This document shows, one piece after another, positions 1-53,877 of a stretch of DNA of 64,000 nt. Each line of letters starts with the position of its first letter. The stretch's first letter is position 1. Source of the stretch: Gemmatimonadota bacterium (lineage in GTDB: Bacteria; Gemmatimonadota; Gemmatimonadetes; Palauibacterales; Palauibacteraceae); assembly GCA_963666735.1 (NCBI GenBank), contig OY762926.1:1920001-1984000 (forward strand), in the 5' to 3' direction. A model generated the notes under the pieces. The model was not told the origin of the DNA, searched no databases, and worked only from the letters and a program-made list of their open reading frames with translations. The position numbers and the translations under genes are program-made.

Positions 1-797
1 TCACCCAGAACGCCGATTCTCGTCACCTCGAACTCCGCGCGGCCCGAACCCGCCCAACTCCTGCGCTTGACCCAGACCGCGCCGGACCCGTCGGGTGAGA
101 AGGCTATCAGGTCGTCTTCCGGCAGCGAATGCGTCAGATACACTCCCGCGTCGGGCGCAAGTCCAGCCTTGATCTCGACGGGTCCACCTCCGAGGGAAAG
201 TAGAGCCAACGTGTCGCGCAGCGAGCCCGTGGGGTCGGAAACGAGCAGCGGCAGGTTCGAGATACCCCCCCGTGCGGTGGCTCGGAGAGCTGAGAAGGTC
301 CGGGATCCGACCAGTCGACCGTTAGCAAGGATGGCTCTCGGCACGACGCTCAAGAAGTAGTACGACAACGGAGGATCCACGTCATATGGGACCGTCTCGG
401 CCTCACCGCTCAAAACATCGAAGAGCGTGAAGCGCCTCAAGCTCGGATCAGCGACCCACACCCGCGATCCATGCCAGCCCATTGACGACGGAGTCATCAA
501 CTCTGCCGGGCCCTCGCCTCGGCTGCCAAGATCACGAACAAACTCCCCGGTCCGTTTAAAGACCCTGACTGTCCCCTCTTGGGCCAGCAACACGTACACG
601 TAGTCGGTGTCCGTCAGAACGTCGCGCACTTCTGACAAACCGTAGATCGGGTCGTCCGCGCTCCCGATCGAAGCAACCCGTTGAAGGGACCATTCCGGCG
701 TCTGGCCCAGAATCGGGCCAGACGCCCATTGGATCACGCACGCGAGCACGAGCCCCGGCAGCCCACGGTCGATGAATCCTCTATACGTTTGAAGCAT
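1..797 (-). CDS. Secreted 6-bladed beta-propeller (NHL-like) protein, runs off the window start
   Basis: Not in ORF track; read manually: ATG 797 with GGAGGG RBS, MLQTYRGFIDRGLPGLVLACVIQWASGPILGQTPEWSLQRVASIGSADDPIYGLSEVRDVL...LGSRGEGPAELMTPSSMGWHGSRVWVAD; clear paralog of 1606..2778. Confidence 0.8.
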   Translation of the reverse strand, partial: MLQTYRGFIDRGLPGLVLACVIQWASGPILGQTPEWSLQRVASIGSADDPIYGLSEVRDVLTDTDYVYVLLAQEGTVRVFKRTGEFVRDLGSRGEGPAELMTPSSMGWHGSRVWVADPSLRRFTLFDVLSGEAETVPYDVDPPLSYYFLSVVPRAILANGRLVGSRTFSALRATARGGISNLPLLVSDPTGSLRDTLALLSLGGGPVEIKAGLAPDAGVYLTHSLPEDDLIAFSPDGSGAVWVKRRSWAGSGRAEFEVTRIGVLG

Positions 798-817
798 TGC
801 CGTTCCCTCCCTACCGC

Positions 818-1279
818 CTACAATTGCAGCTTCGCGGTCTCGCTTCGTATCCCACTCACTTTGGCTGGCGCATACCATTTCGTGACGATCCCTCCATCAC
901 ACGATCGCTTGATCTCGCTCGCCTGTCGGGGGAACGCGATGGGATTGGCCGATCCGCGCGCCACGCTGGCCGCTTGTGGTTCAGTTGAGGTTGCCTCGAA
1001 CTGTTCCATCGGCACGGCGGGTGCCGCGCGCCCGTCTAGCATCACCGTAACTACACAGCGTGGCCCTCCGACGCGACAGGTAGTGCATCTTGGTGTGGCA
1101 CAGTACTCGGCGCCGAGCCCTTGTTGGCCTGCCACGCAGTGGGCGCACTTATTACCGTTCTCATCAGAAAGTGCACCGTACTGACAATCCCAGCACTGTG
1201 CGCTCACGGGTTCGACCGACACCGCCCCGGCCAAGACGGCAAGACTGAGGCTCAGCATGAGAATTCGTGCGAGTCTCAT
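818..1279 (-). CDS. Secreted Cys-rich small protein (peptide A1), 153 aa
   Basis: ATG 1279 after GGAGAG; signal peptide ending VSA|Q; CxxC-x12-CxxC-x11-C-x4-CxxC-x6-C then tail RSCDGGIVTKWY...TAKLQL. Confidence 0.8.
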   Translation of the reverse strand: MRLARILMLSLSLAVLAGAVSVEPVSAQCWDCQYGALSDENGNKCAHCVAGQQGLGAEYCATPRCTTCRVGGPRCVVTVMLDGRAAPAVPMEQFEATSTEPQAASVARGSANPIAFPRQASEIKRSCDGGIVTKWYAPAKVSGIRSETAKLQL

Positions 1280-1433
1280 CGTCTCTCTCCTTTGTTTCGG
1301 TTGGAATCTCGGACGCTTGCCCAAGATACTTCACGAGTTCACTGGCATTCGGCGTTCGCATTGCGAGTGCGGCGCGTGCCTCCGTGGCGCTGCCGACAAA
1401 CCCGAAGGGTGCTTCGACCCTGGTGTCCTCAGG
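1280..1433 (-). pseudogene. Remnant of the 3' end of the lipoprotein gene at 4558..7177
   Basis: Encodes TRVEAPFGFVGSATEARAALAMRTPNASELVKY vs TKVEAPFGLVASGTAAPVVLAVRTLNASELVKY; DNA aligns to about 4560..4715. Confidence 0.75.
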
Positions 1434-1605
1434 TGGAGATGTCCCGCTTTCACGGACGGTTGATTTCTGCGGTTGATCACCTCCGGTTCTGCTCCCTTCG
1501 GTCTCTCTCGGACGCGGGAGAGAGGCTCCGGGTGCGCGCCCGCGGTGCGCCTCGGGGGGACACGCGGAGTGTGGCCACGGGGGAGGGGAAAGCCGACGTG
1601 GCTCC

Positions 1606-2778
1606 TCACCGCACAATTTCGTAGCGCACTAGGTACGGGATGTCGAGTGCATCCGACTCCACCACCCAGCAATCGGTCTTGCCGGCAAATGCCACATGTG
1701 ACGACGCGGGCAGCTGCAATCTTCCAACCGTCGCTCCGGCACCATCGAGGACAAGCCAAATCCGCTCGCCAGCTACTTCCGGTCCCGCCAGCCATGTCGT
1801 TCCGTCGCTTCCCGCCGAGACCCGCGTCACGGGCGGAAAATACTCCCGCATTCGAAAGAACTCGCGCAAAGCCGCTTCGTACGCCCGTCGATTAACGACG
1901 TGAGGGCTGTTCGCGGATTCAGCTATGGTCTCGTCGAAGAAGTCATCCGGCACCCGATGGGGCTCGTAACCAACGCGACGTCGGAAGATCGTGTCACCGC
2001 GAACTTGAACTTTGGTGACCTCGAATTCGGCCGGCTCATCGCCATCCCAACTCGTCCGGTCCACAATCACTGCATGGGAACCGTCCGGCGCTATCGCGAT
2101 CAGCCCGTCCTCCGGAAGTGGGCTGAGTCTGTATTCCATGTTAGATCCAAGGCCATCGGTGATCTCGCCCGTCTGCCGGTCGATCGCAAGTACGGCCAAG
2201 GTGTCGTGTAGGGCCCCATCCGCGTCCGTAACGACGACCACCCGGTCCGTAACGATCCCGCGAGCCTCAGCCCTCGCGGAGAACTGTGGATACCCAGCTA
2301 ACCGTCCGTCATCGAGTACGGCCCGGGGTACCATCCCGCGGACCGTGTATGACTCTTTGACCGGCGCGTGATACGGAACCGTTTCCGCGTCACCCGTCGT
2401 GACATCGAAGAACGTGAACCTCATCAACCGATAATCGGCCACCCACAACCGCGACCCGTGCCAGCCCATCCATGTAGGGTGCAGCAACTCGCCGGGTCCC
2501 CGTCCCTTGCGACCGAGCGCGCGAACGAAGGTACCGTCGCGCGAAAAAACACGGATCTGTCCGTCCTGCGGCTGAAGGACATAAACTTGATTCGCGTCCG
2601 CCAGCACTCCCCCAACCGGTGTGAGCCCGTAGGGGGGGTCGTCAGCGCTCCCGAGCTTTAGGTCGAGCCGCAGAGTCCACTCCGGCACCTGGCCCGCCGC
2701 CGAACCAGACGCGGACAAGGCACCGCAGACCAAAGCGGGCACCAGTATGGACACACGCCACTGGCCAATTCGCAACAT
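1606..2778 (-). CDS. Secreted 6-bladed beta-propeller (NHL-like) protein, 390 aa
   Basis: Signal peptide; LGRKGRGPGEL motif; C-terminal DALDIPYLVRY typical of this family. Confidence 0.85.
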   Translation of the reverse strand: MLRIGQWRVSILVPALVCGALSASGSAAGQVPEWTLRLDLKLGSADDPPYGLTPVGGVLADANQVYVLQPQDGQIRVFSRDGTFVRALGRKGRGPGELLHPTWMGWHGSRLWVADYRLMRFTFFDVTTGDAETVPYHAPVKESYTVRGMVPRAVLDDGRLAGYPQFSARAEARGIVTDRVVVVTDADGALHDTLAVLAIDRQTGEITDGLGSNMEYRLSPLPEDGLIAIAPDGSHAVIVDRTSWDGDEPAEFEVTKVQVRGDTIFRRRVGYEPHRVPDDFFDETIAESANSPHVVNRRAYEAALREFFRMREYFPPVTRVSAGSDGTTWLAGPEVAGERIWLVLDGAGATVGRLQLPASSHVAFAGKTDCWVVESDALDIPYLVRYEIVR

Positions 2779-3081
2779 TCCCCCCTATAACCGCAGTTGC
2801 GCGGTCGCAGTCCGAACCGCACTCACCTCGTCGGCAGAATACGGCGTCGAGATGATGCCCCCGTCGCACGATCGCCTCGTCTCCGGCCACTCTGGTGTAC
2901 CCGTGGCTCCTCCGTCTATCGCGACCACGAGCGCACCGCTTGCTCCCGCCGACCACTTCGTCGCTGGCGACTCAAGGGGCTCCGGGGGTGAGACTGGGCT
3001 TACCCCGTTTTAGTGGACAGGTGAAAGTGGTGGTTTCCTCCATTCTCGCCACCTCGCGGGAGAGGGCCGCGGCCCGGGGGG

Positions 3082-3960
3082 TCACGCCGCCTCTCCTTTC
3101 TCGCGCGCCTCGAAGCTGGCGGGCGACTCGTAGCCGAGGCTCGAGTGCCGCCGGCGCGGGTTGTACCAGCCCTCGATGAACCGGAACACCCCCCGGCGGG
3201 CCTCGCCGGGCGTCCGGAACGAGCGCCGCCAGATCAGTTCGCACTCCAGCGTGGCGAAGAACGACTCGCACATGGCGTTGTCGTAAGCGTCGCCCACCGA
3301 GCCCATCGAGGGCCTGACCCCGGCCCTCCGGCAGCGCCCGCCGAAGGCGTAGGACGTGTACTGGCTGCCTTGGTCGCTGTGGTGGATCACCCCGTCGGGG
3401 CGCCGCTGCGCCAGCGCCATGTCGAAGGCATCCAGCACCAGGGACGTCCTCAGGTGCGTCGCCATCGACCAGCCCACGATGCGGCGGCTCCAGGCGTCGA
3501 GCACGACGGCCAGATAGAGGAAGCCCGCCCAGGTCGGCACGTACGTGATGTCGGCCACCCAGAGTTCGTCGGGTCCGGAGGCCGAGAAGTCTCGGTCCAC
3601 GAGATCCGGCGCGGGCCTGGACTTCGCGGCCCGCTTCGTCGTACTGCCCTTGCGGCGCCGGCTCACCCCTTCGATCTCCGCCGCCCGCATCAGCCGCGCC
3701 ACCCGGCCCACACCCGCCTCGCGGCCCCGCGCCTTGAGTTCCGCATGGACCCGCGGCGCCCCGTACGTCCCCCCGCTCATGGCGTGGATCTCGACGATCT
3801 CCGCACTGAGCGCCTCGTTCTCCCGCGCCCGCCGAGACGGCTCCCGCGTCCGCCACGCATAGTACCCGCTCGGGGAGAGACCCAGCAGGCGGCACATCAC
3901 GCGCACGGGATACATGGCCTGGTGATCGCTCACGAACCGGAACCCCCCCGGGGGATCGAT
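3082..3960 (-). CDS. IS3 transposase OrfB (DDE integrase core), in the -1 frame relative to OrfA
   Basis: WVADITY, HHSDQGSQY, DNAMCESFF, YNPRRRHSSLGY; 5' boundary approximate. Confidence 0.9.
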   Translation of the reverse strand: MDPPGGFRFVSDHQAMYPVRVMCRLLGLSPSGYYAWRTREPSRRARENEALSAEIVEIHAMSGGTYGAPRVHAELKARGREAGVGRVARLMRAAEIEGVSRRRKGSTTKRAAKSRPAPDLVDRDFSASGPDELWVADITYVPTWAGFLYLAVVLDAWSRRIVGWSMATHLRTSLVLDAFDMALAQRRPDGVIHHSDQGSQYTSYAFGGRCRRAGVRPSMGSVGDAYDNAMCESFFATLECELIWRRSFRTPGEARRGVFRFIEGWYNPRRRHSSLGYESPASFEAREKGEAA

Positions 3961-4238
3961 CCGCTCTCCTTGGCGAACCAGGCCGTGGCTTTTGCCAATA
4001 TGTCGCGCTCGATCTTCACCCGGCGAAGCTCGCGCTTCAGTTCCCGGACTTCCTTGCGCTCGACCGTCGTCAGACCGTCGGTGCGACGCCCCTCGTCCAG
4101 GTCGGCCCGCTCCACCCAGCGCCGGATCGCCGTCGCCGAGGGCTCGAACTCGCGAGCCAGCCGGTCCGCGCTCCGTCCCGCACGGACCAGTTCCACCATC
4201 CGCGCCTTGTACTCCGGCGCGTATCTCCGTCCCGACAT
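3930..4238 (-). CDS. IS3 transposase OrfA (HTH)
   Basis: MSGRRYAPEYKARMVELVRAG...IRRWV...ERDILAKATAWFA. Confidence 0.9.
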   Translation of the reverse strand: MSGRRYAPEYKARMVELVRAGRSADRLAREFEPSATAIRRWVERADLDEGRRTDGLTTVERKEVRELKRELRRVKIERDILAKATAWFAKESGSIPRGGSGS

Positions 4239-5512
4239 GTGACACCTCCTCGTTGTGACCAACGCTCAAAGGTGTCCACCAAATCGGGGTAACTCCAGAC
4301 ACGTCCGTCGAGCATCACGCCACCCAGTACCTTGCAGAATCCTCCACCCAGGGTGCAGCGCGTGCACTCCGGGGTCGTACATTCGAGAGCTCCGAGTCCC
4401 CAATCGTCCGCTTCGCAGAAAACGCACCTGCGGCCGGGATCGGAGATCGGGCCGGGACCGGGTATGCAGTCCCAGCACTGTGCAACCGCGGGTTCCGCGG
4501 ACGCGATCCCGGCAAGAATGGCAAAGCCGAGGCCCAGCATGAGGATTCGTGTGCGTTTCATCGTCTCTCTCCGTTGCGCCGGATGGAGTCTCGGGCACGT
4601 GCCCACGAGTACTTCACAAGTTCACTGGCATTCAGCGTTCGCACGGCGAGCACGACGGGGGCCGCAGTGCCGCTCGCAACGAGTCCGAAGGGGGCCTCGA
4701 CCTTGGTGTACTTCAGGAATCGGCCATGTGAGTCGAACCGGAGCAGGAGCCGTTCGTCGGTCCCGCGGTGCGCCAGAGTCTGCACGTATTCGGGCCCGAC
4801 GGCGACGACCGAGGTCGAACTCCAGATGCCGGGATCCAGCCGCAATGATTGGGCCACGGCATCGGCGAACCAATCAGGATTGACCCGTTCAAGCTTCTCG
4901 GGCACCCAATCGATGGCGTTCCCGATACGCCACACCCGAAAGGGGCTGGAACCCTGCCACACAAGGGCTTCTCGCCCAGCCCCCCCAAGTGCGACAGTCC
5001 TCGCGTAAGCGGAATCCGGCGTCCAAGTACCGTTGCCCGCTGGCAGTTGCAGGTGGGACGGCATCGAATCGGAACCGGAGATTGCGACGATCCACCCGGT
5101 GGTTGTCCACGCCGCCGCGCTGGCTTCCCGCGATCCCGGTAGGCGGCGCCGAGTATGTGCGACGCCCGCAGTATCGGTGGCGACCACCTCGCCGCTCGCG
5201 GCATCCACGATCTCCAGATCCTTCTCGTTCAGGAACTGAACGCCGATCGCGCGCCCCACGTCGGCAGCGAGGATGTCTCTCGAAGCGGATCCACGGTACA
5301 CGCGAACGCCCGGAGTTCCGGCGAACCAGGCGACGATCAGGTCGCCCGACGGCGAGAGCGCTGCGCCGCTGAGCAGGCGATCTTCCGGGAGAGCGATGGC
5401 GGCTCGCTCGGTGAACTCGATTCCCTCTCTGCCAACACGCGCGAGACACGAGAGGAGCAAGAGATTAGAGTAGGGCGAGACAGAGAGATTGAGGATGGAA
5501 CGAGGAGAAGGA

Positions 5513-5947
5513 ATGAAGGTGAACGGAACGCCCCTCTCTTCAGGGGAGGGCGGGCGAAGCGCGGCGGCTTCCGCGGCGGATCCGGAGGTGTCGGCGAAGG
5601 CGACGCGGCGGCGCTTCACGGCGGCGTACAAGCTGTCGATCGTCGAGGAGGCGGACGCCTGCGAGACGTCGGGCGAGATCGGAGCGTTGCTTCGGCGCGA
5701 GGGATTGTACGGCTCGCACCTGTCGGCGTGGCGGAAAGCGGCGCGGGAGGGATCGCTGCGGGGGCTGGCGAAGAGACGCGGACCGAAGCCCTCGGGCGGG
5801 AAGCGTGAGGCGAGGAGGGTGCGGAAGCTGGAGCGGGAGAACGCGCGGTTGCGCGAGGAACTCCGCAAGGCGCGCATCATCATCGATGTCCAGGGAAAAG
5901 TTGCGGGGCTGCCGGGCGTGAGCCCCGGGGACGGGAAGCGCTCTTGA
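5513..5947 (+). CDS. Transposase OrfA (HTH + coiled coil)
   Basis: RRRFTAAYKLSIVEEADAC...GALLRREGLYGSHLSAWR; start could be 5489. Confidence 0.85.
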   Translation: MKVNGTPLSSGEGGRSAAASAADPEVSAKATRRRFTAAYKLSIVEEADACETSGEIGALLRREGLYGSHLSAWRKAAREGSLRGLAKRRGPKPSGGKREARRVRKLERENARLREELRKARIIIDVQGKVAGLPGVSPGDGKRS

Positions 5948-6981
5948 GCGCGGCCGGAGGCTTGGCCGGGCACGTGGGCGTACGCGCGGCGTGCGAGGCC
6001 CTCGGGGTCGCGCGCGCCACGTTCTACCGTCGCCGGAGGCCGAAGACCGGGCGGCGGCGGCCCCGGCCGGCTCCCGCCCGGGCCCTGGACGCGGCGGAGC
6101 GGGCGGAGGTCTTCGGCGTGCTGTGCTCGCCGCGCTTCGCCGACCGCGCGCCGGCGGAGGTGTACGCGACGCTGCTGGACGAGGGCGTCTATCTGTGTTC
6201 GGAGCGGACGATGTACCGGATCCTGGCCGAGAACCGGGCGGTCCGCGAGCGCCGGGCTCAGCGCAGCCATCCCAACCACCCGAAGCCCGAGGTGGTGGCC
6301 AAGGCACCGAACGAGGTGTGGTCTTGGGACATCGCCCGGCTGCTGGCGCCGGAGAAGTGGCGGTACTTCTATCTGTACGTGATCCTGGACATCTACAGCC
6401 GCTACGTCACCGGATGGATGGTGGCGGAGCGCGAGACCGCAGGCCTGGCCGGACACTTGGTCGGCGAGACGTGTCTCAGGCACGGTGTGCGGCCCCGGGT
6501 CCTCACGCTGCACTCGGATCGGGGATCCCCCATGACGGCCAAGTGCACGGCGCAGCTCCTGGCCGACCTGGGCGTCACGCAGTCGCTGGGCCGCCCCAGG
6601 GTCTCGAACGACAACCCGTACTCGGAGGCGCACTTCAAGACCCTCAAGTATCACCCGGGCTTCCCCGGTCGGTTCGGCTGCATCGAGGAGGCGAAGGACT
6701 TCTGCCGGGAGTTCTTCCAGTGGTACAACACCCAACACCGCCACGGCGGCATCGGCCTGCTCACCCCCGAGCAGGTCCACCTCGGCCGCGCCCCCGAGGT
6801 GATCGAGCAACGGCGGAACGTGCTGGCCGCGGCCTACGCCGCCCGCCCCGACCGCTTCGTCGTCGGCCCGCCGAGGGCTGTGGAACTCCCGGAGGAAGTC
6901 TGGATCAACCGCGCACTCCCCGTCACGCCGGTTGATGGATCGGAGTCGGCCAACGGGAGGAAGGAGGCCTCACTAAACTGA
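5944..6981 (+). CDS. DDE transposase OrfB
   Basis: VWSWDI, LHSDRGSPM, SNDNPYSEAHFKTLKY; TTGA overlap with OrfA stop. Confidence 0.9.
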   Translation: MSAAGGLAGHVGVRAACEALGVARATFYRRRRPKTGRRRPRPAPARALDAAERAEVFGVLCSPRFADRAPAEVYATLLDEGVYLCSERTMYRILAENRAVRERRAQRSHPNHPKPEVVAKAPNEVWSWDIARLLAPEKWRYFYLYVILDIYSRYVTGWMVAERETAGLAGHLVGETCLRHGVRPRVLTLHSDRGSPMTAKCTAQLLADLGVTQSLGRPRVSNDNPYSEAHFKTLKYHPGFPGRFGCIEEAKDFCREFFQWYNTQHRHGGIGLLTPEQVHLGRAPEVIEQRRNVLAAAYAARPDRFVVGPPRAVELPEEVWINRALPVTPVDGSESANGRKEASLN

Positions 6982-7280
6982 ATCGGAAAGTGTCTCACAT
7001 TCGTTGGCAGGTTCCGATTTCCGAGGCCGCCTGTGCCACCGGTTCGACGCTCTCCGCCCCTGCCCGCCGGTCATCGGGGATCCCGTCACGAGCGTGCTGT
7101 ACGTCACCGCATCCCGATGCGAGGGCGCACGCAACGACAGACCACGTGAACAGATTTTGGATCCGGGCTCTGTGCATTGTCCCATTCCCGATTCCGGGGA
7201 ACCCGAACATCGACGACTTCGGCATGGTAGCTCGTGTTGCGCGGCACCTGCAACCAGAGAGAAAATCGTATCAACTTGAC

Positions 7281-7991
7281 TCAGACTGTGTACTCTTGAT
7301 CAAGAATGACTACTCGGTCCGATTCGGCCGGAAGGATGGGCCGGACATGGTCCGCCGTGAACGCTGCGAAGAGCCGGTCCGTCGTCAGCCGCTCCAGTTC
7401 CCCCGACCGGCGAAGCTCGTATACCCTGAGGACCGAGAGAGCGGCGAGGAACGCGCCCAGCGTCGTGGCCCCGTTCGCTCGCGCTCCGAACTGCTTGAAC
7501 AGCGTGACTGGCGCACAGCCCACGTCCCCGGCCAGTTCCCGCACGTTGCGAACCGGTCGGTCGGCAGCCTGCCGCACCGCATGAACGAGGGCCGCCTGGA
7601 GAGCGGAAGGCAACGACGAGCGCTCGAACGATTTCGCCAAGCTCCACAGACCCCGTGTCGCGCGCGCGGCGTCGAGGCGGGGCCGGAGACCCGTTCGGTA
7701 TTCGGTGAACCAGACCATCGCCGCCACACGCACGCGAAGCAGTTGCCTGGCCAACTGGGGATCGGGATTCGTCACGAGAGCCACCGGCACCCACGGCCGC
7801 TCGCGCTCGAACCTCGCCAACAAGTCGATCTGCGCCGGCCGAACCCGGCCCACGCAAGCGATCACGACCGCCTCGACCTCACGGTCGAAACTGGCGAGCG
7901 CTTCGGTGGCGTCCGCCTCCCGGGCGCCGGGGCCCGCGGCTCGGCATACCTCCCGGGCTGTCTGCGGCGTGTCCGCGACTACAAGGATCAT
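7281..7991 (-). CDS. Pseudo-receiver + AraC-like HTH regulator, copy 1 (30-aa in-frame deletion)
   Basis: MILVVAD...PWVPVALVT receiver-like fold; VRELAGDVGCAPVTLFKQF HTH; paralog of 12302..13093. Confidence 0.7.
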   Translation of the reverse strand: MILVVADTPQTAREVCRAAGPGAREADATEALASFDREVEAVVIACVGRVRPAQIDLLARFERERPWVPVALVTNPDPQLARQLLRVRVAAMVWFTEYRTGLRPRLDAARATRGLWSLAKSFERSSLPSALQAALVHAVRQAADRPVRNVRELAGDVGCAPVTLFKQFGARANGATTLGAFLAALSVLRVYELRRSGELERLTTDRLFAAFTADHVRPILPAESDRVVILDQEYTV

Positions 7992-8426
7992 GGCGGCCTC
8001 TGCGGCCTCTTCTGAATGGGAACGCGGCGGCGCCCCGCATTCGATGTACCTCCGGTCTCTACTCTCTAGACGCCATGAGCGAGCGAAACCCCGCACGAGC
8101 CGGCCGACCGGATGGCGAACGTTCATCGGCGTTCGTCTCGTAGACTGCTTGTAACACAATGTGTGGCAGTCGATTAAGAAGGTCGGCGTCTGAGCCCGGG
8201 AAGCAGCGGCGGCTGCGGTGGGATCGCCGGTGGCCGTTGCATCGATCCCACGAATCGTCGTGGGACTCGGTCGAATTCGGCGCCAAGAGCAGCGGCGGCG
8301 TCCCGGTCCGGCTTGAGGCCGGCACCCGGTTGACACCACATTGATGGACATCTGGAGGTTTGCCATATGCGGACGGCCGCTCCGGCGACGCGTCGCAGTG
8401 AACCTTTCAGCGGGAGATTCTGGGCG

Positions 8427-8795
8427 ATGGGGTTTGATGTGATCGGACTCATCACGGTGGTGCTGGCCATCATCGGCGTGGGCGTGAAGCTGGAACTGGG
8501 CAACCGCAAGCTCGGCGGCCGGGTCGGCAAGATGCGCGACGAACTCCGGGGTGAGATCCGGGACACGCGCGACGAACTCCGGGGCGAGATCAAGGATGTG
8601 CGCGACAAGCTCGGGAACGAGATCGGTGCGCTCCGGGGCGAGATCAAGGACGTGCGCGACAAGCTCGGGGACGAGATCGGTGCGCTCCGGGGCGAAGTGG
8701 CGAAGACGAGCACGTCGGTGGCCCGGCTGGAGGGCCATGCCTTCGGCATTCCCTTCCCGGACGCCGGCGGCGGCCGAGGGATTGGTCAGGGCTGA
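8427..8795 (+). CDS. Small membrane-anchored coiled-coil repeat protein (DUF1640/Bdr-like)
   Basis: N-terminal TM helix; repeats RDELRGEI / RDKLGxEIGALRGEI; ends VARLEG. Confidence 0.7.
   Translation: MGFDVIGLITVVLAIIGVGVKLELGNRKLGGRVGKMRDELRGEIRDTRDELRGEIKDVRDKLGNEIGALRGEIKDVRDKLGDEIGALRGEVAKTSTSVARLEGHAFGIPFPDAGGGRGIGQG
8534..8696 (+). repeat. In-frame tandem repeats (33-bp and 54-bp units)
   Basis: gcgcgacgaactccgggg.gagatc x2; gcgcgacaagctcggg.acgagatcggtgcgctccggggcga x2. Confidence 0.8.
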
Positions 8796-8854
8796 CGGAG
8801 AACGGCCGGTGTGATCCGACCGCAACAGCCGGCGCGACGAAACGTGTTGGTGAC

Positions 8855-10135
<1,281 letters not shown>

Positions 10136-10214
10136 CGGCGAGACAGCCGCCGCGGTGCGTTACGGCACGATGATTTCCGGGAGGCCTCGGATCCGTTCAA
10201 TCGTCACCCTGGCG

Positions 10215-11309
10215 TCACCCTGGACTCTCCTCGCGGAGGCTGAGCTTTACGATGCGCCAGGGCGGGAAACGGGTGTCCGCGAGAAGGTACAGGTGCCGCC
10301 CGCCACCCAGAATCTGTGAGTTCTCCGGTAACGGCACGTCCTCGTACAGTTTGCGGCCGGTGTGCCGGTCGTAGATGTCGAGCGACGAGTGGTACTCGGT
10401 GAAGCCAACCTCGGAGCCAAAGCGTCCGTGTACGACGATTAGGTGAGACCCCACCACCGCCATCTGCGAGATCGTGCTGTGGCCCCCAAGCAGGTTCGGT
10501 ATCTGATTGGCGTACGCCCCCGGAGCAAGGGCACCCGGTTCGAACACGGGAAGGGGGTCGAACGAAGCCGGGGGAACGCCGATTTCCCCGATCGAGTCGC
10601 CCGCCGTGTTCAGGACTGCCACCGGATAGCGGACAGAGGAGGCCGTATAGATCGAGTCGCCCGCAACGGCGAACGGAAAGACGACTAGCGAAATCCAATA
10701 CGGCCTCTCCGCCGGAACGAAGGGATACCGATAAGCGCTCCATGCCACTTCGTTGTCCGTTAGCCGGTGCAGCAGCAGAGGACGCCGGAAGAAGCGTGAA
10801 GCGTCCTGTGGTCGCTCGGCGGCCCGCATCATCCCCACCAGCAGGTCGTCGCCCATTCGTATGACGCCCCGCGGGACCCCTGGAAGTTGTACCGTGGTAT
10901 CGGGCTCGAGTTCTCCGGTCAGGTACGTCAAGCGACCGCTCCGCGAGCCGAGGACCGCGATCTTGCCAGAGGCAGTCTCGGCCAAACCGTTGATGCCCTG
11001 GAACTCGAACGGGCCCTCTCCGAACCGTCCAAAGGCCGCTGCAAGCCGCCCATCCTCATGGTAGCTGCGGATCCTCGGAAGCCGTCCATCGCTCAGGAGG
11101 AAACCGCTTTTCACGCGTTCCGCAAAGATTCCCGGGGTTGCGATCGAGTCTTGCGGATCCTCACCTAGCGTGATCACCGCTTCGGTTTCGAACACCTCCT
11201 CCAGTGCGACCCCGGCCGGCGGCTTGTAATCGGGTCCCGCCGCGCACGCCGTAATCGCCAGACCGGCCGCGAACGGAGCCGGACAGCTCGCTCGCGCAGC
11301 CGCCCGCAT
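10215..11309 (-). CDS. 6-bladed beta-propeller lipoprotein, 364 aa
   Basis: Lipobox AITAC; FGRFGEGPFEF motif; start at ATG 11309 just below the peptide gene. Confidence 0.8.
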   Translation of the reverse strand: MRAAARASCPAPFAAGLAITACAAGPDYKPPAGVALEEVFETEAVITLGEDPQDSIATPGIFAERVKSGFLLSDGRLPRIRSYHEDGRLAAAFGRFGEGPFEFQGINGLAETASGKIAVLGSRSGRLTYLTGELEPDTTVQLPGVPRGVIRMGDDLLVGMMRAAERPQDASRFFRRPLLLHRLTDNEVAWSAYRYPFVPAERPYWISLVVFPFAVAGDSIYTASSVRYPVAVLNTAGDSIGEIGVPPASFDPLPVFEPGALAPGAYANQIPNLLGGHSTISQMAVVGSHLIVVHGRFGSEVGFTEYHSSLDIYDRHTGRKLYEDVPLPENSQILGGGRHLYLLADTRFPPWRIVKLSLREESPG

Positions 11310-11325
11310 GAGAGCGATCACGAGC

Positions 11326-11583
11326 TTACCGGACGACGATCTCAGGCAGGCAGCAAACCTCCCACGTCGTCCAGCACGCCGAGCCTTCACATGTTTCCCA
11401 CCAAGGGTCGCGATGCTGGAGGTCCACACACGGGCCAACTTCCTCCTCCCATTCCTCGACGCACGGGTCCCCACTGTCCTGTCCTTTCAGGGCCGAGGGG
11501 CCGACGGTCGTCGATGCGACCGCGAAGATGAGAGCCACCGCGAATGCGGTAGCGATACGTATGAACCGCGAGAACCTGTCCAT
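11326..11583 (-). CDS. Secreted Cys/Trp-rich peptide B, 85 aa
   Basis: AGGAGGG RBS; signal peptide; mature QDSGDPCVEEWEEEVGPCVDLQHRDPWWETCEGSACWTTWEVCCLPEIVVR (6 Cys, 5 Trp). Confidence 0.8.
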   Translation of the reverse strand: MDRFSRFIRIATAFAVALIFAVASTTVGPSALKGQDSGDPCVEEWEEEVGPCVDLQHRDPWWETCEGSACWTTWEVCCLPEIVVR

Positions 11584-11607
11584 TCTTCCCTCCTAACGGG
11601 ATTCGAG

Positions 11608-12204
11608 TTAACTGCGGATGACGCCAGTGGAGAGAGTCCCCCGCAAGGCGCCGACCTGAGCTTCAAAGCTCCAGCCGCAGTCCGAGCCGACAGCCCTGGA
11701 ATCGGCCATCACTACGACTCCGGCGCCATCAATGAGTAGCTTCGTGTTCGGGAGAAGTGGACCCAACGCTGCTTGCACGTCCCGTCGTCGCGCTTCCGTG
11801 AGGGCCGTGCCCCGCAGGGACCGACGCCCATCCTCCGGTACGTCATCCGTATCAAACACTACGACATGGCGCCGCAACGAATCGTCGTCTCCGAGGGCAT
11901 TCCAAACGGCGGGCCTGCCACTCAGGCACGTCTGACAGCGTGCCAAATCGACGATCCAAACCAGGTGCGCCTCCGCAGGATCCGGTTCTTCGAGTCCGAG
12001 CCACGACAGGGACACCGCCCTTCCGACCAGGCGATCCCGGACGCTCGACCGCTCTGCGAGCGGAGCCGTCGACTGCAGCGTCGCCGCGAGCTCGCGGTTC
12101 GACGCGGCCGTGTTCCAGACCGCGACCGCGCCGCAAAGCACCAGGGCGAACACAGCCAAGTCCAGAACCTTCCTGAAGGATTTTCCTGCAGCCATGAGCC
12201 CCAT
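11608..12204 (-). CDS. Membrane-anchored thioredoxin-fold (TlpA-like) protein
   Basis: N-terminal TM; LVWIVDLARCQTCL (CxxC after a beta strand); LLPNTKLLIDGAGVVV cis-Pro-like motif. Confidence 0.6.
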   Translation of the reverse strand: MGLMAAGKSFRKVLDLAVFALVLCGAVAVWNTAASNRELAATLQSTAPLAERSSVRDRLVGRAVSLSWLGLEEPDPAEAHLVWIVDLARCQTCLSGRPAVWNALGDDDSLRRHVVVFDTDDVPEDGRRSLRGTALTEARRRDVQAALGPLLPNTKLLIDGAGVVVMADSRAVGSDCGWSFEAQVGALRGTLSTGVIRS

Positions 12205-12301
12205 CCGCCTGCGATGAAACCGGGTTTCTCCTCGGGCTCAAACTGTATTCCCCAGCGAGGTTACGGCAACGGCTATAGTGTATCGGTTTTGCTCAAATCG
12301 A

Positions 12302-13093
12302 CTACTCTTGGTCGAAAGTGAATACTCCGACCGATTCTGCAGGCAGGATCGGTCGGACATGTTCCGCCGTGAACGCCGCGAAGAGTGGGTCCGGGGCCAT
12401 CCGCTCAAGCTCCCCGAGCGGGCAGCCCGGCCATGCGCGCACCCTTCGGGCCAAGGTTGCCCGGTGTATCTCCGTGCGGTGTAGCACGCGCTTCCAGCCT
12501 AAACCCGACCGGCGAAGCTCATGCACCCTGAGAACCGATAGAGCGCGGAGGAAAGCGCTCAGCGTGGTCGCACCGTCTGCTCGCGTTCCGAACTGCCGGA
12601 ACAGCGTGACGGGTGCGCAGCCCACGTCCCGGGCCAGTTCCCGCACGTTGCGAACCGGTCGGTCGGCCGCCTGCCGCGCCGCATGAACGAGGGCCTTCTG
12701 GAGAGAGGAAGGCAACGACGTGCGTTCGAACGATTCCGCCAGGCTCCACAGGCCCCAAGTCGCACGCAAGGCGTCGAGCCGGGGTCGGAGACGGGTCCGG
12801 CGTTCGGTGAACCAGACCACTGCCGCCACACGCACGCGAAGCAGTTTCCGGGCCAACTCGGGGTCGGGATTCGTCACGAGCACCACCGGCACCCACGGCC
12901 GGTCACGCTCGAACCTCGCCAACAGGCGGACCTGCTCGGGCCGAACCCGGCCATGGCAAGCGACCACCACCGCCTCAACCTTACCGTCGAGAGTGGCGAG
13001 CGCTTCGGTCGCGTCCGCCACACGGGCGCCGGGGCCCGCGGCTCGGCCTACGTCCCGGGCTGTCTGGAGCGTGTCCGCGACCACAAGGATCAT
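12302..13093 (-). CDS. Pseudo-receiver + AraC-like HTH regulator, copy 2 (full length, 263 aa)
   Basis: Receiver-like N-terminus with no obvious phospho-Asp; two HTH-like segments (VRELARDVGCAPVTLFRQF; WKRVLHRTEIHRATLARR). Confidence 0.72.
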   Translation of the reverse strand: MILVVADTLQTARDVGRAAGPGARVADATEALATLDGKVEAVVVACHGRVRPEQVRLLARFERDRPWVPVVLVTNPDPELARKLLRVRVAAVVWFTERRTRLRPRLDALRATWGLWSLAESFERTSLPSSLQKALVHAARQAADRPVRNVRELARDVGCAPVTLFRQFGTRADGATTLSAFLRALSVLRVHELRRSGLGWKRVLHRTEIHRATLARRVRAWPGCPLGELERMAPDPLFAAFTAEHVRPILPAESVGVFTFDQE

Positions 13094-13217: not shown

Positions 13218-13507
<290 letters not shown>

Positions 13508-13645
13508 CTCGTAGCGCAGAAACCGGGGCAACTCCACCTTGCTTCCTGTACGCCGCCGGGGGGCTGAACCTTACATCCGTCTTCCGGCTCTTGCGATCCG
13601 CCGCACCCGGGGTGCGGTCTCGTTTCCGGAGTACCGTTCCCGCGG

Positions 13646-14491
13646 CTACGGGAACCGGCGGATCGACTCGGCGACGAGGCGCTGGAAGCCGGCTTGGGCG
13701 AGTTTCGTCGTCTCGAGCACTTCCTCGTGATTCAGCGGCTCGTCGAGGACGCCCGCCGCGTAGTTCGTGAGGCAGGAGACGGCCACGCAGCGGATGCCGA
13801 GGGCACGCGCCGCGATCACCTCCGGTACCGTGGACATGCCGACGGCGCCGGCGCCCAGCGTTCGCAGCATGCGGATCTCGGCGGGGGTTTCGAAGGCGGG
13901 ACCGTGCATCGCCGCGTAGACGCCCTCGTGCAGCGTCTGCCCGAGCTCGGCCGCGGTCTCGCGCAAGATCACACGTAGTTCGCGGTCGTAGGCGAAGGTC
14001 AGGTCGGGGAAGCGATTCTCCGTCCCCACGACGGAACCGATGAGGGGGCTCGTGCCGGTCAGGTTCAGGTGGTCCGAGATCAGCATCAGTTCGCCGGGGT
14101 GCCAGCCCTCGCGGATCGCCCCGGCCGCGTTCGAGAGGAAGAGGACGGGGATCCCCAGCGCCGCCGCGACCCGCACGTAGAAGACGACGCGGTCCGGCGG
14201 GCCGCCCTCGTAGAGGTGGACGCGTCCGCCGAGGCCCAGCACGGGCCGGCCGCCGAGCGTCCCGATCAAGGCGTGCCCGGCGTGCCCGGTCACCGTCGGG
14301 CGGGGCCAGCCGGGAAGATCCTCGTATGGCACCCGCACGGGATCCTCGATCTCCGCGCCGAGCCCGCCGAGCCCCGAACCCATTGTGACCGCGACATCCG
14401 GCACGGCGCCGTCCAGCCGGTCCTCGATGCGGGCTCGCAGCGCCGCAGCCGCCGCCTCGACGCCGGCCTGGATGTCGGCGGCGCGGGTCAA
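13646..14491 (-). CDS. punA: Purine-nucleoside phosphorylase
   Basis: GSGLGG, GHAG, GRVHLYEG, GPAFETPAE, VGMSTVPE; TTG start overlapping nupC stop. Confidence 0.95.
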   Translation of the reverse strand: MTRAADIQAGVEAAAAALRARIEDRLDGAVPDVAVTMGSGLGGLGAEIEDPVRVPYEDLPGWPRPTVTGHAGHALIGTLGGRPVLGLGGRVHLYEGGPPDRVVFYVRVAAALGIPVLFLSNAAGAIREGWHPGELMLISDHLNLTGTSPLIGSVVGTENRFPDLTFAYDRELRVILRETAAELGQTLHEGVYAAMHGPAFETPAEIRMLRTLGAGAVGMSTVPEVIAARALGIRCVAVSCLTNYAAGVLDEPLNHEEVLETTKLAQAGFQRLVAESIRRFP

Positions 14492-24581: not shown

Positions 24582-25943
24582 TCAGTCGGGTGGACAGGAC
24601 TCGACGATGACTAGCGCGCCTGTCTCCCCTTCGAGGCGCAGGTGCAGCACGTAGTCCACGTCCAGATTGTCAGAGACCACGCCAAAAACTCCGCCGCCCG
24701 CGCCAAAGTGCAATGCTTCCAGCTCCGCGGACGCGGCCACCATGCCTCGATAACGCCCGCAGTTGTCCAAGAGATCCCAAGTCGAGCCAGCCTCGGCCCC
24801 TGTTCCCGGCTCCCGCTCGGCCCACAACCACCCTTCCGGCGACACTTCCAGGGCCGCCAATACAGGCCTCATGTCCGACTCCTTCTCACCTCTTTCCGGC
24901 AAGGGAGGAGGGGTGCCCAACTCCACGGTACGAAGGGTATCCCCGTCAAAGTTGACTTCGTGGAAGCGTCGGGCCGACCGATTCGCTAGCCACACTGTTC
25001 CGCCGGGTCCAGCCGCCCAAACGACCCGGGGTTCGGCGGCGGCAGCCGTGGTCAGATTCGTCGTGCCACCCCTGATCCGCCCCGCGTCGCGCCGGGTTTC
25101 CCTAGTTCTGCCCTCACCCAACGTTATGGGTCTCAGTTCGATCAGGAGCGTGTCCCCCGAGAGTATCTCGTGTTCAGCGGACACCGGCAGACGCGCCACA
25201 TGCAATTCCTGTCGACCAACGGAGGAGTTGAATGAAATGTGGGTCAATTCCCGATAAACGGAACCGAGAGTATCCGTGCCCACAACCCTTGTCATTGGCT
25301 TCGGATCCCAAGCCAAGGTAGCTACCGTGCCGCCGGATCGGCCCAGCTCGTTACCCAGCGAATCCAAGAGCAGTTGTTGCGAACGGTCGCCGACCCACAA
25401 TCGGTTGGGTGCCTGCCACACAATCCGGCCGCGCCCAGCCAGCTGGTTGGAGTAGCGTTTCTCGCCAGGTCCGTCTCCCTCTCGCGCCATGCTCCGCAGG
25501 TATCGCCCATCGCGATCGAAAACGCGGACTTCTCTCCATCCGACATCAAGGACATAGATTCGACCGCCCCCATCCACCGCCAGGTCGTGGATGTCGGCGA
25601 AGGCATCAGGTCCAGACCCGGACAGTCTTCCGATCCTCAGTTCCTCGACCAGCCGCCATTCTTCGGCAACCTCGGGGCCAGCCGACGCGACGTTGGACAC
25701 CACCGCACGTCGCCCACCCAAGGTGTCTTTCGGAAGTCCACCAGCCCCGCGTTCGACCTGGGCCGCCGACGGAATCGCCATGATCGCACATGACACCGTC
25801 GCCACGATAGCGTGCCGTGGCGAACGCAAGCGGTTGCCACCTCTTCTGGCCAATATCGCTTTCCAGGGAAGGGCGCTCGGCGCTCGGCGCGGGGGCAAGG
25901 CTCGGCCGGATCCGACCGGGATGGTTTGGCGGCGGCTGTGCAA
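24582..25943 (-). CDS. Secreted 6-bladed beta-propeller protein
   Basis: EELRIG, DLAVDGGGRIYVLD, AREGDGPGE, DNLDVDYV; start uncertain. Confidence 0.8.
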   Translation of the reverse strand: MHSRRQTIPVGSGRALPPRRAPSALPWKAILARRGGNRLRSPRHAIVATVSCAIMAIPSAAQVERGAGGLPKDTLGGRRAVVSNVASAGPEVAEEWRLVEELRIGRLSGSGPDAFADIHDLAVDGGGRIYVLDVGWREVRVFDRDGRYLRSMAREGDGPGEKRYSNQLAGRGRIVWQAPNRLWVGDRSQQLLLDSLGNELGRSGGTVATLAWDPKPMTRVVGTDTLGSVYRELTHISFNSSVGRQELHVARLPVSAEHEILSGDTLLIELRPITLGEGRTRETRRDAGRIRGGTTNLTTAAAAEPRVVWAAGPGGTVWLANRSARRFHEVNFDGDTLRTVELGTPPPLPERGEKESDMRPVLAALEVSPEGWLWAEREPGTGAEAGSTWDLLDNCGRYRGMVAASAELEALHFGAGGGVFGVVSDNLDVDYVLHLRLEGETGALVIVESCPPD

Positions 25944-37831: not shown

Positions 37832-39570
37832 TTACCGTCCGTCCGGCTGGCGATGAATGATGTGCGGCGTAACGAGGATGATCAGGTCCTGCTTCACCTC
37901 GTTCTCCTTGGTGCTCCGGAACAGATTTCCAATCAGCGGGAGGTTCATGAGCCCGGGAATCCCGCTGCGGCTCCGACTCACCTCGCTCAGCGTAAGACCG
38001 CCGATCACGGCGGTCTCGCCGTCATCGAGCAGCAGCGTCGTCTCACCGATCTGTTTCTCGAACACGAAGCCCACATCCGAGAGTCCCAGCTTCAGCCCGG
38101 ACCGTTCGGCCATCAGCTCCAGCCGGATCTGATTGTTGTTCGTCACGTGCGGGACGACGTCCAGAATAATCCCCGTGTCCTCGAAATCGACGTTGACGCG
38201 CGCGGACTCGGTCTGGGCCCCCGGCTCCAGAACCCGGATCGGGGTGCGTTCGCCCACCTGAATCCTCGCGTGCGCGTGGTCCACGACCCGGATCGAGGGC
38301 GCAGCCTGCACGTCCGACAACTGCTGCGATTCGAGCGCTTCGAGGAACGAGAAGAGGGAGAACTCGCCGAACGCCACGGCCGTGAGGATCTGAAGCGCCG
38401 GCCCGATCGGGCGATCGTTCGCGTTCGCCAGCGCCGCGACCGCCGTGCCTCCGAGGCTCACGAGCGTTTCGTTCGTCCGCTGGACGAACCCCTGATCGAC
38501 CGTTCCATCGCCGTCCACGTCAACGAGTTGGGGCGGCGAATTGGGGTCGGGCGCCGGGATGACGTCGTTGATGCCCTGTTCCACGAAGTCGCCGGCCCGC
38601 TCCTTGAGGTCGTACACGATCCCCAGTTGCTGTACGTCGGTCCGGTCGACAAACACGATCTTCGCCTCGATCGCGACCTGGGGAGACGTCGGTCCAGCGC
38701 GGCGATGATCGTGTCCATCCGCGCGACGACGGACGGTGCGTCGGTCACGATGACTGTGTTGCTGCCGGCGAACGACACGACCTGGCCGCGGTTGGGCGTC
38801 GCCAGGTGTCGGAGCGTCTCCGCCACCGAGTCCGCCCGCGCATAGTTGATCCGGATCACGCGCGTTTCGCTCAGCAGTTGATCCCGCGCCTGGAGGTTCT
38901 CCAGCCAATCGACGACGACGATCCCGCCGTCGGTCCTGTGCCAGCCGAGGTTCTGGGCGGACAGAATCGCGTTCAGCGCCACATCCCACGGCTGATCGCG
39001 GATGTCGATGCCTCGAACGATGACGGACGCGACCTCTCCATTCGGGACGACCGAGATGTCCGCGAACTCCGAGAACCCGGCGAGGACGTCGAGCATGCTC
39101 GCGCTGTCGTACACCACCGAGATGCGTGGCTCGGTCTCCTGCACGACCGGCAGCGGCCCGGAAGCACTCCGGACATCCGTCGTGGACCAGGGAGAAAAAG
39201 GCGGCCCCGGGTTCCGGAAGGTCACGCGAACCGCACCGGAGTCCGCGGTTACCCGGTAGGCGGTTTCCCGCTCGAGATCGAATATGAGCCGCACCGTCCC
39301 GGGCCGGAACCGGGTTGAACGGATGCCGAGCACTCCGCCGCGGTCGATCCGGTCGTAGTGGCGGCGCGCGAGTCCCCGGTTCACCCCCTTCAGGTCAAGA
39401 AGCAGCCGCGGAGGATTGGTGAGCATCATGTGGCGGGGCGTGGCCGGCCCTCCGACGACCACCGTGATCTCGGTCTCCGTCCCCTCGGAGGCGATCCTCA
39501 CTTCCCGCATCTCGGCTGGGGAGGCTGCCGCAACCGCTGCGGCGACGGCGAAAATGGCCCGGGAGATCAT
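37832..39570 (-). pseudogene. pilQ: Type IV pilus secretin PilQ (AMIN + secretin), frameshifted near 38685
   Basis: N-part ends ...IIAALDRR, C-part PQVAIEAKIVFV...ETAVIGGL...PLIGNLF...ILVTPHI lies in another frame; one base is missing. Confidence 0.85.
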
Positions 39571-52936: not shown

Positions 52937-53358
52937 TGTCTGCGGAGGCGGCGAAGCTTGTGAAGGATCGGTTCAGAGCGGGGGTGCTTGGCGTCTGCGT
53001 CGCTGCGGTCGGATCGCTATTCGGAGACCGACCGGGCGGGGCGCTCAGGAGATCATCGAACGTCGCCCGACAACCTGGTTCGCAACTCAACACCCAACCA
53101 CCGACCTCCCAGCTAGGGCCGACTCCGGCCATGTACCAAACCGGCCATAACCATTGAGGAGACCCGCGATCAGAACCGGTCAGGGCTACGTGGGTCTGCG
53201 GCCGGAAGCGCAGGCGCGGGGTCAGTCTGTCTTGGTCGTGAAAGCTGATTTCGTGACCGCCAAGGTCTTGGAGACCGATGTTCCTCGCAGTACTGGCGAG
53301 CTTAGCTTTCGCCAATCTCCCGTCCCGTAACTTCGACCAACTCCGAGAGGCCCATGCG

Positions 53359-53877
53359 ATGAAGTCCCATCCCTGGATTCGAGCTGCCGCCTTGTCAGTT
53401 CTGGCCTTCGCTGCCGCACCCAATACCGCTCGCGCTCAGCCACTCCAGCCACGACCGGCTACCGAGGTACGCCTGTCGGGCGAACCGACCCTCGCCGTCG
53501 GAAGGCTCGACAGACCGACCGAGTACCTATTTGCGGATATCAACGCCGGCGCTCTGCTCGCCGACGGCAGTATGGTGGTGTCCGACGGGCAGCTTTTTCG
53601 GGTTCAGAGGTTCAGCGCCGAAGGGGAGCACCTGTGGAGCCGGGGCAGCGAGGGCGAGGGCCCAGGCGAGTTCGAGTATGTGCAGATCGCGGAAGGGTGT
53701 GCGAACGCGGAGTCGATCATCGTATACGACATCTGGACCACGCGTGTCTACGTGTACGACGGAGAAGGAAATCTGGTTGACGAGTACCGTCTTCTGTACA
53801 ACGACCATGGGTCCAGCTTGCCCCAGCCGGCGCGGCAGGCTCCGAGTCGGCGGGTCCCGTGTTCGCAGGCTACGTGA
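53359..53877 (+). pseudogene. 3'-truncated 6-bladed beta-propeller
   Basis: Signal peptide, GSEGEGPGEF, similarity stops at about LLYND (~150 aa). Confidence 0.7.

Follow-up and report, generated by a model that had tools for sequence, protein, structure and literature searches.

We analysed a 64,000-nucleotide (nt) window (G000:C1:1920001-1984000) of G000, a 94% complete genome of ~4 Mb whose genus, judged by the source names of its homologues, appears to be Candidatus Palauibacter (Gemmatimonadota), and found at its left end part of an array of cassettes in which a gene for a small, secreted, Cys-rich protein stands directly before the gene of a beta-propeller protein. An initial annotation of this DNA had proposed a polymorphic disulfide-peptide system with cognate propellers, and this proposal is supported by the gene linkage, by a predicted binding of peptide to propeller, by their co-variation and by the hypervariability of the predicted interface. 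As far as sequences can tell, the module is real and widespread; it is undescribed in the literature that we searched, and its functional roles are predicted only. Our preferred reading, held tentatively, is that the cassettes would encode a polymorphic effector together with its cognate propeller immunity protein, swapped as a unit at a variable site.

All cassette genes lie on the minus strand at the places given by the annotation, and its Cys counts and its distances of 6-20 bp between peptide and propeller were confirmed: the A-type peptides pepA1 and pepA2 have nine Cys each (8+1 in pepA2) and the B-type peptide pepB has six, with 20, 6 and 16 nt, respectively, before the propeller gene that follows. 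Signal peptides and lipoboxes were judged by eye or with a crude script from the sequence pattern, and on this basis all three peptides have a signal-peptide pattern followed by Gln. The annotation had described three secreted Cys-rich peptides in two cassettes of one layout; the signal pattern, the range of 6-9 Cys and the common gene direction hold, but the A peptides are two-part mini-proteins of ~125 residues, and cassette A has the order propeller (lipA), mini-protein, propeller, whereas cassette B has the order thioredoxin-like protein, peptide, propeller. Sequence comparison of the A and B peptides gave no cross-match.

The A peptide is represented in intact form by pepA1 (818..1279, minus strand), a 153-aa precursor with a signal peptide, an 8-Cys core (residues 28-76), a linker and a conserved basic tail with a single Cys; in the pepA family, the signal peptide and the Cys-rich core are followed by a DG-containing motif, then by a loose linker and the conserved tail. 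A profile of 26 sequences returned 788 clusters at 50% identity with E-values up to 0.001, and 144 at 1e-10. Among the 145 full-length proteins in the best 149 matches listed, cores with six Cys number 87 and cores with eight 44; the core count is even in 136, and 144 have a single Cys in the tail. Only Cys is invariant across 150 pepA sequences, in which the cores are acidic in 122 cases and the tails basic in 143. With a profile of 11 sequences, matches were obtained in 25 of the 401 genomes of the phylum and in 12 of the 36 genomes of the genus; two of them, L080 and L085, are false and match the signal peptide only, and the true ones precede a propeller. In the model of pepA1 (predicted local distance difference test, pLDDT, 81; predicted template modelling score, pTM, 0.47), a four-stranded core occupies residues 30-76, and the tail forms a hairpin and a helix. 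Scans of the peptides against protein families gave nothing above the cut-off, and PDB sequence searches with pepA gave nothing useful. A Foldseek search with the pepA model, signal helix and loose linker included, found nothing at an E-value of 0.001 or lower, and VIA found nothing at a Z of 2 or above; this blank shows neither a new fold nor a difference from known folds. Six loci (L076, L077, L095, L098, L130 and L145) and G000:C1:2831830-2832387 combine a Cys core with other C-terminal tails that still contain one Cys, which suggests a wider set of tail domains.

The downstream propeller is predicted to bind the pepA1 core. We modelled propA1, a 394-aa propeller (1..797, minus strand) that runs 387 nt past the left end of the window, in complex with pepA1, using residues 31-394 and 28-153, respectively, and obtained a score of 0.88, whereas the best control out of three scored 0.00. 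Of 157 solved pairs, 116 reached the mark set for this score, as did 2 of 215 mismatched pairs; this benchmark is rough here because our own alignments were used for the one pair modelled. At least 48% of the contacts were common to the runs, and the partner pLDDT was at least 51. Confident contacts are confined to core residues 31-74, with the core strands 32-35 and 66-70 placed against propeller residues 167-170 and 217-223. The 40 predicted contact positions of the propeller are more variable than the other 324 (entropy of 2.45 versus 1.19 bits in 66 rows; pN of 0.24 versus 0.11), and none of 300 random sets equalled this variability in a comparison made without control for surface exposure. 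We know of no solved complex like that of propA1 and pepA1, and a sequence search of the PDB found none resembling it.

Since conservation in the propeller is lowest at the predicted binding face, we consider it improbable that the propeller is a maturase, that is, an enzyme which, like the NHL-fold amidating lyase PAL, would trim or modify a precursor peptide whose tail serves as follower. The annotation had offered this function beside toxin/immunity and ligand/receptor, which both stand. The tail is conserved as a follower peptide would be, and the propeller profile does match PAL among the NHL structures (E 3.5e-8), but the PAL matches span one generic NHL blade and rank under non-enzymatic NHL domains. 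The predicted contacts, besides being hypervariable, fall on the core and not on the tail, and the near-invariant columns of 86 propellers are mostly Gly, Trp, Pro and hydrophobic residues, with no invariant His or Cys.

Co-variation was measured in eight complete cassettes of the genus, where rho is 0.83 between the distances of propeller and core, compared to 0.00 for propeller and tail, 0.22 for propeller and lipA, 0.15 for lipA and core and 0.07 for lipA and tail. Between G002 and G003, for example, lipA is 88% and the signal region 85% identical, versus 51% for the core and 59% for the propeller. In such sequence comparisons, core and propeller are seen to be exchanged, apparently as a unit, while lipA and the signal region stay. 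Among 15 pairs of the genus, every peptide region correlates with the propeller (0.83-0.94), in a sample in which kin are not independent and the tail is short.

The second A propeller, propA2 (1606..2778, minus strand), is an intact 390-aa six-bladed propeller of the DUF5128/NHL type and matches PF17170 (DUF5128) with 23.1 bits at a cut-off of 22.9. The propA family profile matches NHL structures, and the source names of the homologues read '6-bladed beta-propeller'. An iterated propeller profile has 94 matches in G000, 80 of them with at least 280 aa. Seven propeller genes stand in tandem at G000:C1:2382504-2391063, where no Cys-rich peptide was detected immediately before any one, and the window contains more propeller genes at 24582-25847 (minus strand) and, in fragments, at about 51663-53877 (plus strand), with no peptide detected upstream. 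Two propA homologues of 546-547 aa (P0207 and P0213) have an extra PF04191 (phospholipid methyltransferase-type) domain, possibly through fusion or read-through.

The gene named a lipoprotein in the initial annotation, lipA, does have a signal with a lipobox-like Cys and is a second propeller, split in G000 by an insertion sequence (IS). Its 5′ part with the signal peptide lies at 7015..7177, and its 3′ part, the constant upstream propeller of the A cassettes, at 4558..5417 (both minus strand). lipA has no Pfam match, and a PDB sequence search gave nothing useful; an NHL-like fold is predicted for the intact G002 copy (pLDDT 79.6), for which VIA aligned 248 residues with the Brat NHL domain at Z 18.9 and a root-mean-square deviation of 4.2. 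The identity of lipA as a glutaminyl cyclase or another enzyme was considered and rejected, the best fold rows being non-enzymatic NHL domains tied within 1 Z unit. We found lipA in 48 of the 401 genomes of the phylum, in five families, and of the 30 best loci, taken one per genome, 28 have it directly before pepA; therefore, A is a conserved three-gene unit of lipA, pepA and propeller. At one more locus pepA comes first. L172 (G138) has the rearranged order pepA, lipA, propeller. At many loci the stop codon of lipA and the start codon of pepA overlap.

The conservation of this unit in five families of the class, the overlap of lipA and pepA and the large predicted interface would also suit a stable surface or periplasmic heterocomplex, in which one or both propellers act as carrier or folding scaffold and present a variable disulfide domain, for adhesion, for host contact or as a decoy, under diversifying pressure from hosts or phages. 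This explanation is also suited by dedicated thioredoxin-like genes that lie, at other sites of the genome, next to a peptide and a propeller or between the two. We nevertheless regard it as unlikely, as a pure chaperone would be useless without a client, yet most of the 94 propeller matches have no upstream peptide.

The linkage extends beyond the array. Of 65 open reading frames (ORFs) in G000 that passed a crude filter of a signal plus four or more Cys, many of them false, ten lie directly before a propeller (three of these are from the array), compared to a mean of 0.27 and a maximum of 3 in 2000 random placements, so that the peptide enrichment near propellers for which the annotation had suggested a check is present in G000. 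The 94 propeller matches have no more than 18 candidate peptides within 3 kb upstream. Ten or more other short exported Cys-rich peptides, unrelated in sequence, stand beside propellers, several with a DsbA-like gene between (sites at G000:C1:2414673-2431080, 2901710-2903379, 2943359-2944345, 2657579, 2744498 and 2188682), and two of them lie behind the genome's third regulator copy. Considering the class as a whole, we would suggest, with still more reserve than for the effector reading, a lock-and-key code in which conotoxin-sized disulfide cores, in the hundreds, would each be recognised by an NHL propeller of their own; a conserved tail and a second, constant propeller would carry them, and they would be collected or swapped at chromosomal hotspots.

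All six gene sets tested, including pepA, pepB, propA, lipA and trxB (the thioredoxin-like gene of cassette B), gave a dN/dS of 0.25-0.6. A hand-checked count of broken genes gave six loci with a broken peptide and an intact propeller versus four with an intact peptide and a broken or missing propeller, beside 32 with both intact, which is a weak difference. For this count, the nine broken-peptide rows given by the script were reduced by L076, L130 and L145, which are intact with a variant tail, three rows with short flanks were added to the intact-peptide side and L172 was dropped. The propeller gene is ~2.5 times longer than the peptide gene, yet fewer propellers are broken, again a weak asymmetry.

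The array occupies ~23 kb between the PNP and katG genes; its right half lies inside the window, and it extends ~9.5 kb past the left end of the window, where it includes a B cassette that is broken, a propeller on its own and a third A cassette. We fetched the same site from 26 relatives, in 21 of which katG lies within the fetched stretch. Among these 21, the site is empty in five, holds an intact peptide cassette in eight (six A and two B) and holds propellers or remnants without an intact peptide in the remaining eight. Intervals of the last kind also count against the heterocomplex, whose scaffold would there be kept without its peptide.

Between cassettes A and B, G000 has duplicated 3′ pieces of katG (9390..10172, plus strand; 94% identical to the intact copy at the array's far left end) and of PNP (8855..9389, minus strand; 96% identical to the intact PNP at 13646-14473), which are joined at 9389/9390, and a decayed 3′ remnant of katG lies at 13260..13518 (plus strand), upstream of the regulator gene regB. 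Stretches of the array match the single B cassette of G017 and its flank at 93-98% identity. The regulator gene regA is G017-like from 7402 upwards, with a 5′ part that is 93% identical to the regulator region of the G017 B cassette, and A-cassette-like below. The junction of lipA and pepA2 is repeated (~250 nt, 77%) as a 3′-end remnant of lipA (1326..1433, minus strand) with the signal region of pepA1; the repeat is likely a recombination handle, and the lipA remnant, pepA1 and propA1 form an orphan pair behind it. We infer that the array grew by repeated recombination of whole intervals via the flanking genes and the regulator. No integrase was seen, only IS transposases. Elsewhere, a lipA-pepA fusion (L066 in G050) and a regulator-pepA fusion (L090 in G002) have arisen by deletion, with most of the Cys core lost and the tail and propeller intact.

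That genes of secreted proteins merely gather at a recombination hotspot, with no functional link between them, would account for the duplicated flanks, IS elements and remnants that this site does collect. We judge this very improbable, because the pairing persists away from the hotspot and across the class, and because the complex model passes whereas its controls score 0.00.

Both pepA2 and lipA are split by an IS3-type element. In pepA2, the 5′ part with signal peptide and 8-Cys core (4297..4561) and the 3′ part with linker and conserved one-Cys tail (2785..2990, both minus strand) are separated by an element at 2991..4296 (minus strand) that is 99.6% identical to a copy just left of the window; beside that copy, at G000:C1:1918691-1919617, lies a further ORF of an IS-type transposase. 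The element in lipA (5418..7014, plus strand; joint 5417-7015) has rve and HTH Pfam matches. Neither insertion is present in runs X5 and X6, in each of which one contig spans 7559-1524 with zero mismatches and has pepA2 and lipA whole, and the contigs of runs X1 and X4 run into the IS ends; therefore, both forms exist and the insertions are recent. An assembly artefact was ruled out, with four runs from three studies covering all 30 bins; no RNA data set was among the listed holders of this DNA, which is no evidence for or against expression. Peptide A2 is split in G000 and whole in a near-identical IS-free strain.

Cassette B consists of trxB (11608..12204), pepB (11326..11583) and propB (10215..11309), all on the minus strand. 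pepB is an intact 85-aa precursor of a signal peptide and an acidic 6-Cys peptide, and propB is a 364-aa propeller lipoprotein recognised by the propeller profile, with a lipobox assigned by eye. The pepB family occurs in 8 of the 36 genomes of the genus, and all eight complete cassettes have the order trxB, pepB, propeller lipoprotein. The trxB product (198 aa) has an N-terminal hydrophobic anchor, and in an alignment of eight its CxxC motif and a third Cys are invariant. No match for it was obtained in Pfam or by PDB sequence search; Atlas scores were 0.90-0.92 to unnamed clusters and 0.90 to two thioredoxin-like clusters, the latter a lead only. From these features trxB is likely a disulfide catalyst with a thioredoxin fold. 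Elsewhere, G000 encodes a glutaminyl cyclase, one DsbA-like protein next to VKOR and five other DsbA-like proteins next to propellers.

The predicted mature N-terminal Gln, which the annotation had listed as a shared feature of the three peptides, is present in all of them. Because the A propellers also begin with Gln after the signal and a glutaminyl cyclase is encoded elsewhere, this Gln is generic and no marker of the system. An analogous post-signal Gln is described as the Q-rule of Bacteroidetes in two papers (PMC5837995, PMC10653852).

In the effector/immunity reading, the peptides would be exported by Sec and cleaved before the Gln, which a housekeeping cyclase would convert to pyroglutamate, and the even-numbered core Cys would be oxidised to three or four disulfides, with trxB acting in the B cassettes and DsbA-like proteins from other loci serving the A cassettes. 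The downstream propeller would then grip the core through strand-to-strand contacts on its hypervariable loops, as predicted for A1 only. Cores and propellers are seen to be exchanged together, and extra pairs and lone propellers are seen to accumulate between PNP and katG. The basic one-Cys tail, possibly with lipA, might handle display, delivery or dimerisation, which is a guess, and the released mini-proteins would putatively harm or disable cells without the matching propeller.

Several observations weigh against this reading. Pfam, PDB sequence and fold searches gave no toxin family or fold match for pepA, a blank that excludes nothing, and the mostly acidic cores (122 of 150) are unlike cationic membrane-lytic peptides. 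No outer-membrane route was seen in the cassettes; VipB of the type VI secretion system was not found in the 94% complete genome, and the only secretin-domain match of the genome lies outside the cassettes, at 37856-38338 (minus strand) of the window, and could belong to type II secretion or to a type IV pilus. In at least one case, G020, an intact pepB is without its own propeller. Variable surface loops are common to most proteins, and adjacent genes are inherited together, so that co-variation and a hypervariable face are no proof of specificity. The annotation had suggested comparing peptide and propeller phylogenies, and here the core-propeller correlation in eight cassettes is set against 22 class-wide loci, in which partial correlations separate neither core from tail nor lipA from propA. 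For a conceivable binding of the tail by lipA, the eight cassettes gave the rho of 0.07 noted above and the 22 loci partial correlations of 0.21 for lipA and 0.22 for propA. Of the cognate and swapped pairs whose modelling was likewise suggested, the complex model covers the cognate A1 pair, with a score that close cousins can pass.

The regulator bears on the alternative of signalling. regB (12302..13093, minus strand) encodes an intact 263-aa protein with a receiver-like N-terminus and an AraC-type helix-turn-helix and has an Atlas score of 0.97 to Gemmatimonadota clusters in which HTH_18 is found in 32-98% of the members; the receiver-like label and the missing phospho-Asp are presumed from sequence motifs. 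regA (7281..7991, minus strand; 236 aa) is a paralogue, as the annotation had recognised, is chimeric and is 72% identical to regB. It lacks ~30 residues of the C-terminal helix-turn-helix region, a deletion that is also present in the contig of the IS-free strain, and is probably impaired. With one query, matches were found in 18 of 41 genomes, all of this genus.

The annotation had called the regulator dedicated, and for close copies (at least 71% identical) this largely holds, as 9 of 11 lead a Cys-rich peptide gene. Among 37 distant copies with 5 kb of downstream DNA, eight are followed by a propeller and seven by a Cys-rich peptide, compared to 4.7% and 1.1%, respectively, of random G000 windows, so that the suggested enrichment near regulators is present, but most distant copies front other cargo: S8 proteases, amine oxidases, carboxypeptidase-regulatory-domain proteins, a membrane protein or housekeeping genes. 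No regulator match was found within 1.5 kb of five of the eight complete B cassettes and of 27 of the 30 lipA loci (one query; the G000 locus is IS-cut). Judged by these neighbourhoods, the regulator is enriched at peptide cassettes yet a general header of variable cargo. Around its 3′ end, ~60 nt are conserved across 11 copies whatever the cargo (e.g. 12302-12205 and 7281-7178) and could be a promoter, operator or recombination handle.

If the cassettes instead formed a ligand/receptor code, the mini-protein would be a strain-specific signal or identity tag and the propeller its receptor or sink, lone propellers would read the tags of other strains, and the regulator family would relay the signal indirectly. 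This would account equally well for the predicted cognate binding, the co-variation and the surplus of propellers, and the acidic, non-lytic cores and the 9 of 11 close regulator copies that lead such peptide genes fit it. Even so, the code seems rather unlikely to us, as no membrane-spanning sensor was found among the array ORFs scanned, and the regulator is missing from most complete B cassettes and also fronts proteases, amine oxidases and housekeeping genes. One more gene of the array is an ORF of 142 aa at 8367-8795 (plus strand) with a hydrophobic N-terminus, 33/21-nt coding repeats and a weak, below-cut-off likeness to CCDC90; it has three more homologous matches in the genome and a shorter version at the same place in G017.

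Propellers of the DUF5128 type number 94 in one 4-Mb genome and are without a function in the papers searched, and this locus suggests that their role is to bind a cognate disulfide mini-protein by way of a hypervariable face. The A family offers a large number of unexplored disulfide scaffolds from bacteria, with a natural binder predicted for each. If the effector/immunity reading is true, the cassettes would represent a new mode of competition in an uncultured phylum, and if the ligand/receptor code is true, a new recognition code. A lock-and-key code, if true, would amount to a new kind of polymorphic effector/immunity or self-recognition system that has neither a known toxin fold nor a known secretion machine, and it would provide a natural collection of mini-proteins with matching binders. 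Our literature search, which covered mostly non-subscription papers, found no paper on a peptide/propeller module and none for NVEALA, with zero occurrences of DUF5128 and PF17170. The main text of a paper on the order of Palauibacter (PMC10469786) does not contain the words 'propeller', 'peptide' or 'RiPP' (ribosomally synthesised and post-translationally modified peptide).

Among known arrangements with a thioredoxin-like protein and an NHL propeller are NHLRC2 and SOQ1, to which weak profile and fold matches were obtained; there, the domains are fused, whereas here the genes are separate, bacterial and polymorphic, with a Cys-rich peptide between. In the mau cluster of methylamine dehydrogenase, a propeller large subunit and a disulfide-rich small subunit are encoded with MauD and MauE. 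The cassettes share with it a propeller, a small disulfide-rich exported protein and a thioredoxin-like helper, but their propeller is six-bladed, of NHL type and hypervariable, there is no Trp in the invariant or near-invariant columns of 150 pepA sequences and thus no Trp pair for a mau-type quinone cofactor, and the di-heme peroxidase MauG is absent from the 15 ORFs of the region that were scanned (the genome was not searched for it). As the annotation had stated, no classical RiPP tailoring enzyme was found among the ORFs scanned (15 with Pfam and 11 with NCBIfam), and an unknown enzyme in lipA is conceivable. Bacteroidetocins (class IIf) have a double-glycine leader, an ABC transporter/peptidase, a five-transmembrane protein and no immunity protein (PMC6671954). 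Cassette B resembles them in joining a disulfide-bonded peptide (predicted here) with its own thiol oxidoreductase gene, the fold of trxB being at the level of a lead, but differs in its Sec-type signal, acidic core and propeller partner; the A cassettes have no trxB, and the single C39 exporter of the genome is ~1.5 Mb away.

In Bacteroidota, NVEALA (PF14055) small proteins stand beside DUF5128 (PF17170) or TolB_like (PF15869) propellers, neighbourhoods for which we know of no function. The likeness lies in a small Cys-containing exported protein adjoining a propeller of the DUF5128 family, to which propA2 belongs by the PF17170 cut-off; the differences are the second conserved domain of pepA and the second, constant propeller, and NVEALA (PF14055) has no match in the peptides or the G000 genome. 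Polymorphic toxin-immunity systems include CdiA-CT/CdiI and the orphan arrays of Rhs. With these the cassettes share a variable domain next to a cognate gene (here a predicted binder), the exchange of pairs downstream of a 5′ region that stays constant, the occurrence of orphan pairs and single partners at a hotspot, and constant parts, i.e. the signal peptide and the conserved tail with a putative role in trafficking, that flank the hypervariable core. They differ in having the variable part N-terminal and the conserved part C-terminal, a ~50-residue disulfide-type core with no known toxin fold, a ~390-aa NHL propeller as partner and no delivery system in the cassette. Simple pairs of a signal-peptide toxin and a cognate immunity gene are known (PMC12419801). 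Known here from genes and predictions, the organisation is thus like that of a polymorphic toxin-immunity locus, but we do not file it as one; new here are the two-part A family, the constant second propeller, the contact predicted on a hypervariable face and the pattern of swaps at one defined site.

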